From the NCBI RefSeq assembly GCF_013315695.1, contig NZ_CP054358.1: DNA of 5,153 nt; one strand, 5' to 3'. Of this stretch, positions 1-5,153 are shown piece after piece (position 1 is the stretch's first letter; each line of letters opens with the position of its first letter). A model generated the notes under the pieces. The model saw only the letters and a program-made list of their open reading frames with translations. It was not told the origin of the DNA and made no database searches. This stretch comes from Escherichia coli (GTDB lineage: Bacteria > Pseudomonadota > Gammaproteobacteria > Enterobacterales > Enterobacteriaceae). The translations under genes and the position numbers were made by a program.

Positions 1-53
1 CATCCAACAAGGAGGTTTATAGCGAATATTCCCACAAAAAATCTTTTCCTCAT
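1..53 (-). CDS. kil: Colicin release (lysis) lipoprotein Kil, 5-prime portion: start codon at 53..51, 17 codons plus 2 nt before the window edge; continues at 5153..5069
   Basis: Reverse complement of 1..53 translates to MRKRFFVGIFAINLLVG followed by TG, which with the complement of base 5153 completes a Cys codon, giving a lipobox L-V-G-C. This N-terminus matches the ColE1 Kil protein as I remember it. A Shine-Dalgarno AAGGA (complement of 61..65) sits 7 nt upstream of the ATG. The gene lies downstream of cea and imm on the cea strand, as in pore-forming colicin operons. Confidence 0.85.
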   Translation of the reverse strand, partial: MRKRFFVGIFAINLLVG

Positions 54-100: not shown

Positions 101-442
101 ATGAGTTTAAGATACTACATAAAAAATATTTTGTTTGGCCTATACTGCGCACTTATATATATATACCTTATAACAAAAAACAACGAAGGGTATTATTTCC
201 TAGCGTCAGATAAGATGCTATACGCAATAGTGATAAGCACTATTCTATGCCCATATTCAAAATATGCTATTGAACACATATTTTTTAAGTTCATAAAGAA
301 AGATTTTTTCAGAAAAAGAAAAAACCTAAATAATGCCCCCGTGGCAAAATTAAACCTATTTATGCTATACAATCTACTTTGTTTGGTCCTAGCAATCCCA
401 TTTGGATTGCTAGGACTGTTTATATCAATAAAGAATAATTAA
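101..442 (+). CDS. imm: Colicin E1-type immunity protein (inner-membrane protein, 113 aa)
   Basis: The 113-aa product [34 protein letters not shown]... is very hydrophobic with about three predicted transmembrane segments, and matches the ColE1 immunity protein as remembered. It is antisense to and convergent with cea; the stop codons overlap (cea ends at 439, imm at 442). GAGG at 90..93 lies 7 nt before the ATG. The gene is markedly AT-rich compared with its neighbours. Confidence 0.93.
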
Positions 443-2004
443 ATACCCAACACCTCATTTATAGTATTAAGTTTATTCTTATCAATAAAGGCACATAGAA
501 TGCCTGTAACAATAGCAATCCCCCAGATACCTAATGTAGTTCCAGCAAGCACACTAAAAAGTAAAACAACAACATAACTAACTCCAGCATCTACAGCTTT
601 CTTCTCTAATGTAAGAAATAGCGGCTTCCAGTCACCTGTATCCTTAATTTTTAGGATATCAGATACCACATCATATCCAAAAGAAACATGTCCCGTAATC
701 TTCAAGTACTTGGCAAACTGATCTAAATGCTTAGCCCAGTCTTCATACTTAACCGCCTCCAGTGCATTGAAAATTGCATCACGGTCTGCTTTGCTGAATT
801 TCTTATTTAATACATCCTTGTATTTCTCAAAAGCAGCTAGAGCTTCATTCACATTGCTGATTTTCTTACCTTTAGATTTATCAGCAAGTTCCTGTGCCAT
901 TTTTGAATATTTTTCACCATATTTTTCAGATAGCGTTTGATAAAAGCTAACTGTTGCATCCACAGCATCCTTAATCTGCGAGTTCAGGAGATTAGTCTGT
1001 GCTGTTTTCAAATTATCTTCAGCATCATGAATACGTGAAACTGCTGTACTTCGCTTATTATTAGCCTGAGAAATAGCCTCTTGGATTCCATTTATCTCAG
1101 AGCTAATCTGGTTAAGACGCGTTTCTGATGCTGTTACCTGCTTTTGTTTTTCCTCCATCTCATCACCAGCTCTCGCCCGTAGTCTGGTGGCCTCAAAAAA
1201 AGGACGACTCTGAAGCGGATCATTCGCCCTAGGAGATAAAAGTTTAACCCTTTCATCCAGTTCTTTATATTTAGCAGATGCCTGATCCAACTCATTTCGT
1301 TTTCCGGACAGCGTATTCGTTTCTGCATCACGGGCATGAATACTGGAGCTTAAACGGGTATTGAGCGTATTAATCTCTTCATCCACTTTCGCCAGCTCAG
1401 ATTGTGCAGCAGCAAGATTTTTTTGTGCCACCTCCACAGCCCGGGCCTCTTCACTCAATGCTGCCAGGCGTTTCTCTTCATCCTCAGCCAGTTTCAATTG
1501 GCGTTCTGTTTCAGCCTGCTCCTTCTCTATCTCTTTACGTCGTTGTTCTGCTTCCTGAAAAGCCTTTTCCGCAGCTTCCGCTTCTTTACGGGCTTTTTCT
1601 TCTGCTTTTGCAAGGCGCAACCGCTCTGCTTCTGCCTGCATCGCTGCATTATTGGCATGAGCCAGGTCAATAACCTCCGGATGAGTGGAATTATGGCGAA
1701 GCGCCTCATTCACAATATCCTTCAGATGTTGAGTCAGCGCATCCCGGTTTGCTTTCGCTTTAGCCTGTGCTTCTGCGGCAGCTTTTGCTCGGGCAGCCTG
1801 TTCTGCCTGCGTTTTCTTCAATTGAGCAGTAGACCATTTAGCTGTGGCATGAATGGCTGCAGAACTTTCACTTTTGCTACCTCCAGTTCCACCACCACCG
1901 CCAGAGCCACTCCCGTCTGGATTACCATTCAAAAGAGTAATGATTACCTGCCCCTTATCATCATAAGGAACACCATCTTTATAGTACGCTACAGCTGTTT
2001 CCAT
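439..2004 (-). CDS. cea: Pore-forming colicin, colicin E1 type (521 aa): glycine-rich N-terminal translocation region, central coiled-coil receptor-binding region, C-terminal channel-forming domain
   Basis: Product begins [27 protein letters not shown]...[18 protein letters not shown] and ends ...[47 protein letters not shown] (hydrophobic hairpin of the channel domain). It is collinear with colicin E1 (522 aa) from memory, with scattered substitutions. AGAGGA precedes the ATG. The promoter with LexA boxes is immediately upstream. Confidence 0.96.
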
Positions 2005-2051
2005 TATAAAATCCTCTTTGACATTAAAAACAAATAGTTAAAAGCAATATA

Positions 2052-2082
2052 CTGTATATATAATCACTGGTTTTATATACAG
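2052..2082 (-). promoter_or_regulatory. Twin overlapping LexA (SOS) boxes of the colicin operon
   Basis: Read on the - strand: CTGTATATAAAACCAG (complement of 2067..2082) and GTGATTATATATACAG (complement of 2052..2067). Both are close to the CTGT-N8-ACAG consensus. They lie between the -10 hexamer and the cea start, as in ColE1. Confidence 0.8.
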
Positions 2083-2086
2083 TTTA

Positions 2087-2115
2087 AAATTACGCCGCTG
2101 CATTTTCCCTGTCAA
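2087..2115 (-). promoter_or_regulatory. sigma70 promoter of the cea-kil operon (-35 TTGACA at 2115..2110, 17-bp spacer, -10 TAATTT at 2092..2087)
   Basis: Reverse complement of 2086..2116 reads TTGACAGGGAAAATGCAGCGGCGTAATTTT. This is a perfect -35 with a 17-bp spacer, and the predicted start site falls inside the LexA boxes. Confidence 0.75.
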
Positions 2116-3235: not shown

Positions 3236-3335
3236 ACTGAAACGCGCTGAACGCGATTCTGACGCAGACACCGCAAAAAGAGATGTTTTACCCCGGAAAA
3301 ACAGGAAGGATGCGTCAGGATCGTTTTCAGCTCTC

Positions 3336-3349
3336 TGCATAGCTATGCA
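3336..3349. promoter_or_regulatory. Candidate ArgR box within the cer accessory sequences
   Basis: Perfect 14-bp palindrome TGCATAGCTATGCA at the distance from the Xer core where the cer ARG box lies. Assignment is by position and symmetry only. Confidence 0.5.
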
Positions 3350-3425
3350 TGAAAGCGAATGGTGATCACTTTGGGAGCTTACGGTGTTCATACCGTCAGT
3401 TTTCGACAGTTTTCTCTCCGGGAAG

Positions 3426-3773
3426 CTAATCTGCCATAAGCCTGGATAACAGGGCACGGTGATACTCCGTAATAGCGATCAGCACCTCCGCATACTCCCT
3501 GTCCCCGACACGCTTGCCGTCGATAAAGAGTTTTTTCTGTAACGCCCCCAGTCTCATAACTTCTTTCAGTACCCGATCATCAGTCAGTGAGTTAACTTTC
3601 TTACCGAGAGCTGCCGCCCGTAAAAAACCGGAAACGGTCTTGCCGCATTCAGCAGCCCTTTTTCTGATTTCCTGGTCTTCTTCTGCCGTCAGACGAACAG
3701 GGCGACTGATAGCCCGCCTGCGCGTATTACTTCCACTTCGTTTTGTCATAAAACATGGCTCCGTATCTGACAT
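3426..3773 (-). CDS. mbeC: Mobilisation (relaxosome accessory) protein of the MobC/MbeC family, ribbon-helix-helix type; alternative start at 3749 gives 107 aa
   Basis: Product ...RRRAISRPVRLTAEEDQEIRKRAAECGKTVSGFLRAAALGKKVNS...LGALQKKLFIDGK... has the MobC-family signature (R.VRLT.EE...I...A...G.SVS.F.R..ALG). GGAG (complement of 3759..3762) sits 9 nt upstream of the internal ATG at 3749, so that may be the true start. The oriT-like region is immediately upstream. No relaxase gene follows. Confidence 0.85.
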   Translation of the reverse strand: MSDTEPCFMTKRSGSNTRRRAISRPVRLTAEEDQEIRKRAAECGKTVSGFLRAAALGKKVNSLTDDRVLKEVMRLGALQKKLFIDGKRVGDREYAEVLIAITEYHRALLSRLMAD

Positions 3774-3900
3774 GGGTGTCGGGGCAAAGCCCTGACCAGG
3801 GTAATTGTAATAGCGTGCATGTATGCGCGGTATAACAATTACACATCCTGTCCTGTCAGCAAGTTCGAATTACCGACAAAGGCACGGCAGTTTTTTGGCA
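3774..3900. other. oriT/bom-like region (origin of transfer) upstream of mbeC, with inverted repeat 3801..3812 / 3831..3842
   Basis: GGGTGTCGGGGCAAAGCCCTGACCAGG (3776..3802) resembles the start of the pBR322/pMB1 bom region (GGGTGTCGGGGCGCAGCCATGACCCAG) as remembered. It is followed by the inverted repeat GTAATTGTAATA ... TATAACAATTAC, a typical oriT hairpin. The nick position is not determined. Confidence 0.5.
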
Positions 3901-4032
3901 GTGACAGTATTGTCAGGCAGAAATACCCGTCAAAGCGTCAGACGGCAGAATACCGGCGGTAAAACAGTCGAAAAGTGGTACGCGATATAATCACACAACG
4001 CAGATGACAGACAGAACGGAGAAAACGAAAAG

Positions 4033-4227
4033 ATGAACAAGCAGCAGCAAGCCGTACTCAACATGGCAGGATTCATAAAAAGCCAAAGCCTGACGCTGCT
4101 CGAAAAGCTGGACGCACTCGATGCTGACGAACAGGCTACCATGTGTGAGAAGCTGCACGAACTCGCAGAAGAACTCCAGAACAGCATCCAGACACGCTTT
4201 GAAGTAGAAAATAGCACAGAGAGATAA
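4033..4227 (+). CDS. rom: Rom/Rop (RNA one modulator), 64 aa, four-helix-bundle regulator of the RNA I-RNA II kissing complex
   Basis: MNKQQQAVLNMAGFIKSQSLTLLEKLDALDADEQATMCEKLHELAEELQNSIQTRF... aligns along its length with pBR322 Rop (MTKQEKTALNMARFIRSQTLTLLEKLNELDADEQADICESLHDHADELYRSC...). GGAG precedes the start; the gene is adjacent to oriV and oriented towards it. Confidence 0.9.
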   Translation: MNKQQQAVLNMAGFIKSQSLTLLEKLDALDADEQATMCEKLHELAEELQNSIQTRFEVENSTER

Positions 4228-4868
4228 CGCTCAGGACAGGATACCGAACGGCACAACAGAGCGTAAGGAGAAAATGTCACATAAGGCGCTCTTCCGCTTC
4301 CTCGCTCACTGACTCGCTACGCTCGGACGTTCGACTGCGGCGAGCGGTGTCAGCTCACTCAAAAGCGGTAATACGGTTATCCACAGAATCAGGGGATAAA
4401 GCCGGAAAGAACATGTGAGCAAAAAGCAAAGCACCGGAAGAAGCCAGCGACGCAGGCGTTTTTCCATAGGCTCCGCCCCCCTGACGAGCATCACAAAAAT
4501 CGACGCTCAAGCCAGAGGTGGCGAAACCCGACAGGACTATAAAGATACCAGGCGTTTCCCCCTGGAAGCTCCCTCGTGCGCTCTCCTGTTCCGACCCTGC
4601 CGCTTACCGGATACCTGTCCGCCTTTCTCCCTTCGGGAAGCGTGGCGCTTTCTCATAGCTCACGCTGTTGGTATCTCGGCTCGGTGTAGGTCGTTCGCTC
4701 CAAGCTGGGCTGTGTGCACGAACCCCCCGTTCAGCCCGACCGCTGCGCCTTATCCGGTAACTATCGTCTTGAGTCCAACCCGGTAAGACACGACTTAGCG
4801 CCACTGGCAGCAGCCGTTGGTAACTTGGTTAGCAGAGCGATGATGGCGCAAATGGTGCAACAGAGTTC

Positions 4869-4898
4869 TTGAAGTAGTGGCCCGACTACGGCTACACT
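4869..4898 (+). promoter_or_regulatory. RNA I promoter (-35 TTGAAG, 18-bp spacer, -10 TACACT)
   Basis: Hexamers positioned as in pMB1; the RNA I start at about 4905 lies 7 nt downstream of the -10. Confidence 0.6.
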
Positions 4899-4904
4899 GG
4901 AAGG

Positions 4905-5012
4905 ACAGTATTTGGTATCTGCGCTCTGCTGAAGCCAGTTACCTCGGTTAAGCAGTTCCCCAACTGACTTAACCTTCGATCAAACCGCCTCCCCAGGCGG
5001 TTTTTTCGTTTA
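4905..5012 (+). ncRNA. RNA I (antisense copy-number control RNA, about 108 nt)
   Basis: Starts ACAGTATTTGGTATCTGCGCTCTGCTGAAGCCAGTTACC, identical to the 5-prime end and stem-loop 1 of pMB1 RNA I. Ends in a stem (CCGCC 4985..4989 / GGCGG 4996..5000) followed by TTTTTT. -35 TTGAAG (4869..4874) and -10 TACACT (4893..4898) are upstream. Confidence 0.85.
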
Positions 5013-5020
5013 CAGGCAGC

Positions 5021-5049
5021 AGATTACGCGCAGAAAAAAAGGATCTCAA
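5021..5049 (-). promoter_or_regulatory. RNA II promoter (-35 TTGAGA at 5049..5044, 17-bp spacer, -10 TAATCT at 5026..5021)
   Basis: The complement of GGATCTCAAG...AGATTACGCG gives TTGAGA and TAATCT, the same elements as the pBR322 RNA II promoter. Confidence 0.7.
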
Positions 5050-5060
5050 GAAGATCCTTT
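5034..5060 (-). terminator. Hairpin plus short U-run just downstream of the kil stop; candidate terminator of the cea-kil transcript, overlapping the RNA II -35 region
   Basis: Arms AAAGGATCT (5038..5046) and AGATCCTTT (5052..5060) with a 5-nt loop. On the - strand the hairpin is followed by TTTT (complement of 5034..5037). The kil stop is at 5071..5069. Confidence 0.4.
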
Positions 5061-5068
5061 GATCTTTT

Positions 5069-5153
5069 CTACTGAACAGAGATCCCCGTCAATTTAGAAG
5101 AAGATGATGGAGCCACAGTCCCTCCCTGAACATCACGTATATAGTTAGCCTGA
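5069..5153 (-). CDS. kil: Colicin release (lysis) lipoprotein Kil, 3-prime portion (residues about 18-45 plus stop at 5071..5069); joins 1..53 if the molecule is circular
   Basis: Reverse complement of 5153..5069, in the frame set by bases 2..1, reads (C)QANYIRDVQGGTVAPSSSSKLTGISVQ then TAG. This is a near-exact continuation of the ColE1-type lysis protein, giving a 45-aa lipoprotein overall. Neither the ORF track nor a linear gene finder can see it because it is split by the window boundary. Confidence 0.8.
   Translation of the reverse strand, partial: QANYIRDVQGGTVAPSSSSKLTGISVQ

Follow-up and report, generated by a model that had tools for sequence, protein, structure and literature searches.

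The colicin operon examined here resembles that of the laboratory plasmid ColE1, but its proteins deviate from the reference. This raises the question whether it represents a new variant, a degraded copy or a natural lineage in its own right, and whether the deviations affect receptor use, translocation or immunity. The window, i.e., the whole stretch of DNA analyzed, comprises an entire circular ColE1-type plasmid of 5153 bp. Its sequence gives us high confidence that the locus would be an intact, functional colicin E1 operon of a second natural allele class, located on a plasmid of the pHUSEC41-4/pSS046_spB type.

Operon architecture and regulatory elements

The anatomy of the locus, its identities to known sequences, its divergence pattern and its prior records were all observed directly. 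The following features were assigned:

2087..2115, minus strand: cea promoter with the -35 element TTGACA (2115..2110), a 17-nt spacer and the -10 element TAATTT (2092..2087), by direct reading and alignment to the ColE1 promoter
2052..2082, minus strand: twin LexA (SOS) boxes, by pattern search, equal to the ColE1 twin box at 29 of 31 positions
2013..2017, minus strand: Shine-Dalgarno sequence AGAGG, 8 nt 5' of the cea ATG, with AAAGAGGATTTTATAATG being the same as in ColE1
439..2004, minus strand: cea, colicin E1 structural gene, 521 aa, natural-isolate allele, by ORF, PF01024 and ColE1 alignment
101..442, plus strand: imm, colicin E1 immunity protein, 113 aa, convergent with cea, by ORF and PF03526
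384..418, no strand assigned: 15-bp inverted repeat directly 3' of the cea stop and within the 3' end of imm, a terminator-like match
1..53, minus strand: 5' part of kil (lysis lipoprotein), joined to 5153..5069 across the circular junction
5069..5153, minus strand: 3' part of kil with its stop codon; RefSeq annotates a 138-nt "colicin release lysis protein" on co-linear plasmids
5038..5060, minus strand: intrinsic terminator at the operon end past kil, a 10-bp stem followed by TTTTTCTGCGC, beginning 9 nt past the kil stop

All elements of the canonical colicin E1-type operon described in the original prediction were recovered (ORFs, promoter, LexA boxes, cea, imm and kil), although kil lies outside positions 439-2115, to which the operon had been assigned, because it spans the window junction. 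The cea promoter was missed by a generic sigma-70 promoter scan and was found via the ColE1 alignment instead. LexA box 1 reads CTGTATATAAAACCAG (2082..2067) and box 2 GTGATTATATATACAG (2067..2052), the two overlapping by one base; their agreement with the 20-nt LexA consensus is 15/20 and 16/20, respectively, and that of the ColE1 boxes 15/20 each. As expected of a colicin E1 operon, cea is thus preceded by an SOS promoter whose two LexA boxes overlap, and the operon closes with the gene of a lysis lipoprotein. The 3' ends of cea and imm share 4 nt. By analogy to the known ColE1 operon layout, the inverted repeat at 384..418 may correspond to T1, the leaky terminator that separates cea from kil; no T-run follows its stem on the minus strand.

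Comparison of the colicin with the reference

The plasmid ColE1 (NC_001371/J01566) served as reference, with the UniProt entries P02978 for Cea and P02985 for Imm. The expectation that both colicin and immunity protein differ from those of laboratory ColE1 was confirmed. In a global alignment, Cea is 87.0% identical to its reference counterpart (454 of 522 columns), leaving 68 differences, with a single gap of one amino acid; the genes differ at 198 nucleotides. The translocation (T), receptor-binding (R) and channel (C) domains are collinear with ColE1 Cea over the full length. A C-terminal pore-forming domain was detected at residues 343-517 (Pfam PF01024, E 1e-33), and the colicin E1 chains 2I88 and 6WXH were retrieved from the PDB, residues 331-521 aligning end to end with the channel domain structure 2I88. 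Searches against NCBIfam, which holds no HMM for colicin E1, Imm or Kil, returned merely spurious coiled-coil matches far below the cut-offs.

Collinearity and the substitutions T28N and K40T had been correctly recognized from the sequence; the divergence itself had been understated, and the differences are clustered rather than scattered. In the receptor domain, 43 of 150 residues differ (71% identity), and the TolC box is 65% identical to that of ColE1, with seven substitutions and a 1-aa deletion in residues 106-114. The channel domain (reference residues 341-522), described earlier as nearly unchanged, is indeed 94.5% identical, but half of its 10 differences among 182 residues lie in or beside the hydrophobic hairpin (A472V, A481V, L486V, S506A, Y507F). 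Within this domain, conservation is lowest in the hairpin region (86% vs 94% overall). No residue differs from ColE1 in the stretch 423-470, which takes in predicted helix VI and almost the whole of helix VII.

Residues known to engage the import machinery are largely retained. Of the residues that PMC9020818 names for TolC contact, only T113 is altered (to I); A116, H117, N119, N120, R129, R131 and the hinge proline (P110 in the reference) are kept. A putative TolC box is recognizable at residues 100-120, hinge proline and contact residues included. Its N-terminal half deviates from the reference, and a helix break is predicted at residues 106-112. The DLAHANN motif is conserved in TolC-using relatives, colicins 5 and 10 included. 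We infer TolC use for the window-type colicin; the literature searched contained no report on TolC dependence of this allele. An AlphaFold model, informative in its coiled-coil parts (T and R) but not in the channel domain (pLDDT <50), places the apex of the R-domain hairpin at residues 257-262 with pLDDT >90. The 14-residue apex motif is conserved in all BtuB-type relatives, which supports the expectation that the window Cea, too, would kill in a BtuB- and TolA-dependent manner.

Immunity and lysis proteins

Imm is 92.9% identical to ColE1 Imm, and the few substitutions anticipated for it amount to eight (T17A, S28N, V35A, Y59H, A61F, N63K, E71R, R72K). Five of them sit in the hydrophilic loop 59-72, outside the three hydrophobic stretches at about residues 7-26, 38-53 and 81-112. 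The protein belongs to the E1-type immunity family (Pfam PF03526, E 3e-35), and its gene lies convergently between cea and kil as in ColE1. Kil comprises 45 aa with the lipobox LVGC, is 93.3% identical to ColE1 Kil (three differences) and matches exactly the Swiss-Prot entry LYS3_SHISO, "Lysis protein for colicin E1*". On nucleotide level, kil was reported to be 127/138 identical to ColE1 in the Riley-1994 ECOR ColE1 plasmids, pColE1-MRE600, pColE1-H22, pSMS35_8, pHUSEC41-4 and pSS046_spB (PMC6234761); the window kil carries the same 11 differences. A search for a Swiss-Prot entry name of colicin E1* gave no match, and Kil is the sole protein linked with the E1* name. Since Cea and Imm are represented in UniRef by unreviewed entries, any Swiss-Prot E1* Cea or Imm is probably less than 100% identical.

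Prior records of the allele

About 25 public 5153-bp plasmids match the window plasmid at 99.7-99.9%. A base-by-base comparison covered three of these records. pHUSEC41-4 of E. coli O104:H4 HUSEC41 (NC_018996) is 3 nt away from the window, with identical Cea, Imm and Kil. pSS046_spB of S. sonnei Ss046 (NC_009346) and the 5153-bp plasmid of S. sonnei CIP_106347 (NZ_CP109778) are each 6 nt away; their Imm and Kil are identical and Cea differs by A335V only. Plasmid B of S. sonnei 53G is the same 5153-bp circle. The 100% identical Cea (WP_000447003.1, as in pHUSEC41-4) is also encoded by pColE1-MRE600 (CP014198.2, 7057 bp) and p582_6888 (NZ_CP120570). These two share the module of cea, imm, exc1 and exc2 with the window, but combine it with mbe-type (MOBP) mobilization genes and a ColE1-like rop, in place of which the window has a NikA-like mobA and another rop. 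Reference ColE1 shares with the window the operon layout, promoter, twin LexA boxes, domain order, the TolC-box core (P110, DLAHANN, R129, R131), the BtuB-type apex, the ten-helix channel domain, the three-helix Imm and the lipoprotein Kil, and differs in its mob and rop segment, which is replaced in the window plasmid.

The allele is widespread: exact matches were found on at least 1000 public contigs each for Cea and Imm, and on 995 for Kil. Protein clusters of the window type hold 752 and 367 member sequences, the reference-type cluster 733. The sequence was deposited from Shigella sonnei Ss046 in 2005, from HUSEC41 in 2012 and from MRE600 in 2016. Riley, Tan and Wang (PNAS, 1994) are said to have probably been the first to describe the window-type lineage. 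The link between their work and this lineage is probable and indirect, running via the kil identity table of PMC6234761. In 2019, a colicin E1 that is 86%/92.9% identical to the prototype was described (PMC6723558). Typing has assigned strains with the window-type allele, MRE600 and S. sonnei, to the producers of colicin E1 (PMC4825418, PMC10924462). The spB colicin E1 of S. sonnei CIP106347 was found to be BtuB- and TolA-dependent, induced by mitomycin C and confirmed by mass spectrometry (PMC10924462). These literature data on receptor and TolA dependence and on SOS induction refer to the A335V variant, which differs from the window Cea at residue 335. Because an identical colicin E1 allele with its cognate Imm has already been described on pHUSEC41-4, pColE1-MRE600 and many other deposited plasmids, the novelty implied by the original prediction does not hold: the window colicin is a common natural allele that is already known.

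Origin and identity of the allele

The split between window-type and reference cea is old and has been kept under purifying selection, with a dS of 0.47 and a dN/dS of 0.14 overall (R 0.30, T 0.07, C 0.07). Of the differing sites, outgroups agree with the window at 26 and with the reference at 30; accordingly, neither allele descends from the other. The implied picture of a reference E1 plus few substitutions thus gives way to that of a sister lineage. That the allele is a young mutant or a degenerating copy of laboratory ColE1, with function perhaps lost or weakened, might be suspected from the common gene order and promoter and from the plasmid being shorter than ColE1 (5153 vs 6646 bp). The long divergence, the even outgroup split and the intactness of all three ORFs argue against such a derivative, as do a backbone (exc1, exc2, ori) likewise diverged by ~9-10%, the wide occurrence of the same protein and the detection of its one-residue variant by mass spectrometry in culture supernatant (PMC10924462). 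We consider this explanation highly improbable and rejected it on the divergence pattern.

Public annotation would suggest yet another identity. Identical proteins are inconsistently named "colicin-10", "colicin transporter" or "colicin-like pore-forming protein"; in RefSeq, the window class bears only the last of these names, and "pore-forming bacteriocin colicin E1" is used for the reference class alone. Surveys relying on names or high-identity matching will under-count colicin E1. The many GenBank records labeled "colicin-10" would make the window protein a Tsx- and TonB-dependent colicin, which we regard as next to impossible. Its identity to colicin 10 (P0093) is 21% in the R domain, 60% in the channel domain and ~55% over the full length. 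The window Cea lacks both the colicin 10 N-terminus and the Tsx-type receptor segment VTGFPGWR, and it has the BtuB-type 14-residue apex; its one-residue variant kills via BtuB and TolA (PMC10924462), and the label was called wrong in PMC6723558 as well. Identity with colicin 10 was rejected by alignment, neither the Tsx-type receptor domain nor the N-terminus being found. Colicins 10 and 5 are nevertheless related to the window Cea in the T-domain core and TolC box (71-73% over residues 45-189), and the pore domain is homologous in colicins 10 and 5 (59-60%) and in colicin K (~51%). In contrast, all three carry a Tsx-type receptor domain (21% identity) and N-termini unlike that of the window Cea. 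Their immunity proteins were too distant for detection by tblastn at E 1e-5.

Proposed mode of action

In the mechanism we propose, LexA would occupy both overlapping SOS boxes and thereby repress the cea promoter. DNA damage would relieve this repression, leading to transcription of cea and, by read-through, of kil, and the Kil lipoprotein would release the colicin from the producer. The coiled-coil receptor domain would bind BtuB via its conserved apex, the translocation-domain hairpin would open at the hinge proline and thread into TolC, and TolA would be needed for import, after which the C-terminal ten-helix domain may depolarize the target cell by forming a channel in its inner membrane. 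The producer would be protected by Imm, which is predicted to span the inner membrane with three helices and would be expressed from a promoter of its own on the other strand, a mechanism that we infer. Colicin, immunity and lysis proteins represent a natural-isolate lineage long split from laboratory ColE1 and held by purifying selection.

Possible functional distinctness of the two allele classes

Two E1 classes differing in this way could be functionally distinct, either as separate immunity groups, through the hairpin and Imm changes, or through different TolC engagement by residues 106-114; judged from the sequences, we consider this rather unlikely. Cross-immunity is the classical criterion for a colicin type. 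If the five hairpin changes together with those in Imm defined an immunity group of its own, and hence effectively another colicin type, reference ColE1 Imm would give no cross-protection, and possibly the reverse would hold too. The low conservation of the hairpin region within the channel domain is in line with this reading, as is the coupling of hairpin type and imm type in all five loci inspected. Two of these five are recombinants (pUTME-12-4-pColE1 and a metagenome contig) that turn reference-type in the hairpin exactly where imm does, and the PLSDB counts agree within each class (~68 Imm and ~70 Cea of the window type, 149 Imm and 147 Cea of the reference type). Such coupling is, however, expected from physical adjacency alone, since imm borders directly on the hairpin codons. 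Each of the five hairpin substitutions is conservative, and in Imm, TM2 and TM3 are identical, TM1 differs by T17A only and most changes fall in the hydrophilic loop. Helices VI and VII, which lie in the invariant stretch 423-470 entirely or nearly so, are reportedly implicated in Imm recognition by the work of Zhang and Cramer (1993) and of Lindeberg and Cramer (2001); our literature search on immunity determinants in these helices gave nothing usable. The typing of MRE600 and the S. sonnei strains as colicin E1 producers (PMC4825418, PMC10924462) also speaks against a separate group, for which we see only a slim chance.

Natural plasmids uncoupling hairpin type from imm type were absent among the five loci inspected, compared with ~218 records in PLSDB, and a cross-immunity assay between E1 alleles was not found in the searchable literature. 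The recombinant metagenome proteins (P0048, P0051) may be assembly chimeras and were for that reason not relied on; the isolate plasmid pUTME-12-4-pColE1 has the same breakpoint. Overall, the sequence argument leans towards cross-protection between the window type and prototype ColE1.

As a discovery, the allele carries little weight, having been deposited repeatedly, with its divergence printed in 2019 and a one-residue variant functionally tested. Nevertheless, mechanistic work on colicin E1, including the structures 2I88 and 6WXH, the TolC-box mapping and the immunity genetics, has been performed nearly exclusively on the reference allele class. If the two classes were functionally distinct, "colicin E1" in surveys would lump two competing toxins.

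The colicin operon and its plasmid

All elements of the canonical colicin E1-type layout with twin LexA boxes, as described in the original prediction, were found in the window:

2004..439, minus strand: cea (colicin E1), 521-aa ORF, Pfam colicin pore domain PF01024 (E 1e-33)
101..442, plus strand: imm (immunity protein), 113-aa ORF, PF03526 (E 3e-35), convergent with cea with a 4-nt overlap
53..1 joined to 5153..5069, minus strand: kil (lysis lipoprotein), 45 aa, lipobox LVGC, downstream on the cea strand
2115..2110 and 2092..2087, minus strand: cea promoter, -35 TTGACA and -10 TAATTT, from alignment with the ColE1 promoter
2082..2067, minus strand: LexA box 1, CTGTATATAAAACCAG, 15/20 of the 20-nt LexA consensus
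2067..2052, minus strand: LexA box 2, GTGATTATATATACAG, 16/20 of the same consensus
5060..5038, minus strand: terminator after kil, hairpin then T-run, operon end
384-418: inverted repeat, 15-bp perfect stem, within the imm 3' end and 21 nt past the cea stop (opposite strand from imm)

The two LexA boxes overlap by one base and together equal ColE1 at 29 of 31 positions, and the ribosome-binding region upstream of cea is the same as in ColE1. The inverted repeat at 384-418, without a T-run after it on the cea strand, may be the leaky attenuator T1 that separates cea from kil.

The window is a complete circular plasmid of 5153 bp in circular permutation and no fragment, since kil leaves the left end and resumes in frame across the junction. 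A linear annotation would miss this gene, as it spans the junction (1-53 and 5069-5153). About 25 public plasmids, each exactly 5153 bp, match the window over its full length at 99.7-99.9%. When three of them were rotated into register and compared base by base, pHUSEC41-4 (NC_018996, E. coli O104:H4 HUSEC41) differed from the window by 3 nt, and pSS046_spB (NC_009346, Shigella sonnei Ss046) and NZ_CP109778 (S. sonnei CIP_106347) by 6 nt each.

RNAI, the antisense replication regulator, lies at 4907-5009 on the plus strand (Rfam RF00106, 87 bits), within an ori region (4256-5153) that is ~90.5% identical to ColE1. The backbone is a mosaic, with a 1-kb segment giving no blastn match to ColE1:

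3258-4255: segment common to many 2.7-4 kb cryptic mobA-rop plasmids at 93-98%
3773..3426: mobA (NikA-like MobA), within this segment
4033..4227: rop, encoding a Rop different from that of ColE1, within this segment
3235..3206: cer core, identical to the 30-mer of ColE1

The left junction of the segment is ~20 bp from the cer core, a position that would fit a hybrid arising at or near the Xer site. No relaxase ORF was found in the plasmid, though MOB-suite assigns 'MOBF'.

Divergence from the reference allele

Comparison with the laboratory plasmid ColE1 (NC_001371, hereafter the reference) confirmed that the window carries another E1 allele, including the substitutions anticipated in Imm and the two quoted for Cea (T28N, K40T). 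The Cea differences, expected to be scattered, are instead unevenly distributed, being concentrated in the receptor domain and in the TolC box.

Divergence of the window proteins from the reference (amino-acid identity; Cea regions in reference residue numbering)
Cea: 87.0%; 68 differences, one a single-residue deletion; 198 nt
Cea 1-99: 97%
Cea TolC box 100-120: 65%; changes crowded into 106-114
Cea 121-190: 94%
Cea receptor domain 191-340: 71%; 43 changes
Cea channel domain 341-522: 94.5%; 10 changes
Imm: 92.9%; 8 substitutions
Kil: 93.3%; 3 substitutions

Between the two cea genes dS is high (0.47) at an overall dN/dS of 0.14 (translocation domain 0.07, channel domain 0.07, receptor domain 0.30). 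Polarisation of the differing Cea sites with four more distant relatives placed 26 in agreement with the window and 30 with the reference, and the backbone flanking the operon (exc1, exc2, ori) is ~9-10% diverged. In combination, these sequence comparisons point to sister lineages that separated long ago and are both under purifying selection. The view of the window cea as the reference gene with a few acquired substitutions is ruled out by dS, the polarisation and the backbone divergence.

Receptor and translocator use

A functional counterpart is plasmid spB from S. sonnei CIP106347 (PMC10924462, 2024), which carries cea, cei, cel, mobA, exc1, exc2, rop and cer, the gene set of the window; as deposited, it shows 6 nt differences from the window and a single changed Cea residue. 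In that study, E. coli killing was lost on curing spB and required BtuB and TolA, while the colicin E1 level rose with mitomycin C, as confirmed by mass spectrometry. These data on a one-residue variant largely answer the question of receptor use.

With respect to the translocator, cryo-EM of ColE1-T in TolC (PMC9020818) defined the contacts T113, A116, H117, N119, N120, R129 and R131 and a hinge at P110. Among these contacts only T113 is changed in the window Cea (to I), with the hinge proline and the DLAHANN segment intact. DLAHANN is kept in every aligned TolC-using relative, including colicins 5 and 10, while the preceding residues vary freely; judged from this conservation, TolC use is very likely retained.

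An AlphaFold model of Cea, built from 16 relatives, showed confident coiled-coil hairpins, that of the translocation domain breaking at 106-112. The receptor hairpin (pLDDT >90) has its apex at 257-262, formed by the motif SPRANDPLQ(S/N)RPFF, which every E1-type receptor domain shares, even where identity in this domain falls to 59%, and which the Tsx-type colicins among the aligned relatives lack. Most receptor-domain substitutions map to the stalk, where 192-216 pairs with 297-337; only three lie within 243-274.

Immunity and recombinant alleles

Imm has three hydrophobic stretches, of which TM2 and TM3 equal the reference and TM1 carries T17A; five of its eight changes lie in the hydrophilic loop 59-72. 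On the colicin side, half of the ten channel-domain changes are located in or beside the hydrophobic hairpin (A472V, A481V, L486V, S506A, Y507F).

The natural isolate plasmid pUTME-12-4-pColE1 (NZ_CP157099.1) carries a cea of window type to ~codon 461 (breakpoint at cea nt ~1257-1386), followed by a reference-type hairpin, the reference imm and a reference-type backbone. By pairing them, it shows that the reference Imm tolerates the window-type residues 359, 383 and 416-421. A metagenome contig has the same breakpoint plus a second switch, within the 5' half of cea, back to reference-type sequence. A third colicin E1 allele, ~95% identical to the window in nucleotides, occurs in pSMS35_8 (NC_010485.1) and in NZ_CP128975.1; its receptor domain mixes window-type and reference-type markers, with hairpin and imm of window type. 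In NZ_CP128975.1 cea is unannotated and has a 10-bp gap near its 3' end.

Hairpin type was uncoupled from imm type in none of the five loci examined, as would be seen if window-type and reference E1 formed separate immunity groups. However, both are adjacent on the DNA, which alone would produce the coupling and deprives it of proof for a specificity difference. Moreover, TM2 and TM3 are identical, as are channel residues 423-470 (with predicted helix VI and almost the whole of helix VII), and the hairpin changes are conservative, so that separate groups are possible but unlikely. The literature search found no published cross-immunity test between the two E1 allele classes.

Related colicins and remnants

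Colicin 10 and a colicin 5-like protein share 71-73% identity with the window Cea over translocation residues 45-189, 21% in the receptor domain and 59-60% in the pore; colicin K matches at ~51% over the C-terminal 47%, and colicins Ia and Ib in the pore domain only. None of the immunity proteins of colicins 10, 5-like, K, Ia and Ib matched the window Imm (tblastn, E 1e-5). With only 21% receptor-domain identity to colicin 10, the identical proteins labelled 'colicin-10' in GenBank are misannotated. Identical Cea is also named 'colicin-like pore-forming protein', 'Colicin-E1' and 'chromosome segregation ATPase', and Imm 'colicin transporter', while RefSeq reserves 'pore-forming bacteriocin colicin E1' for the reference allele class.

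Domain shuffling within the colicin family is exemplified by a chimeric colicin of 466 aa, from a cluster with 8 member sequences: its translocation domain is of E1 type, its receptor segment of Tsx type (like colicins 5, 10 and K) and its pore domain again of E1 type, at 93% identity to the window pore domain. The chromosome of E. coli Nissle 1917 (NZ_CM189242.1, 1915630-1915889) holds a 260-bp remnant that consists of the two termini of a cea of window type (98.1% identical) and adjoins a frameshifted exc2 and IS fragments. Such remnants, also present at ~128 chromosomal places in B2 strains, appear to come from a ColE1-like colicin module that inserted into the chromosome and then decayed.

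Occurrence and earlier reports

The novelty considered for this variant was not borne out. The exact Cea is encoded by pHUSEC41-4, p582_6888 and pColE1-MRE600 (the colicin E1 plasmid carried by MRE600, a strain used in ribosome biochemistry), by at least 22 PLSDB plasmids and on at least 1000 contigs, likewise at least 1000 for the exact Imm; Kil is identical to the Swiss-Prot entry LYS3_SHISO, 'Lysis protein for colicin E1*'. Clustering at 90% gave window-type clusters of 752 and 367 member sequences and a reference-type cluster of similar size (733). PLSDB holds ~68 window-type Imm and ~70 Cea versus 149 and 147 of reference type. A screen of 5426 complete E. coli genomes gave 36 records matching the window-type cea at >=99% and 137 matching at 80-90%, the range in which the full-length reference-type genes fall.

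The divergence had been reported in 2019 (PMC6723558) for a colicin E1 and immunity protein 86% and 92.9% identical to the prototypes P02978 and P02985, figures equal to those computed for the window; the authors found this E1 nearest to pColE1-H22 and regarded such sequences as mislabelled 'colicin 10'. For kil, PMC6234761 listed 127/138 identity to the ColE1 gene in the Riley-1994 ECOR ColE1 plasmids, pColE1-MRE600, pColE1-H22, pSMS35_8, pHUSEC41-4, pSS046_spB and 53G plasmid B, and the window kil has the same 11 nt differences. The window operon is thus an ordinary natural colicin E1: widespread, repeatedly deposited, noticed before and functionally exercised.
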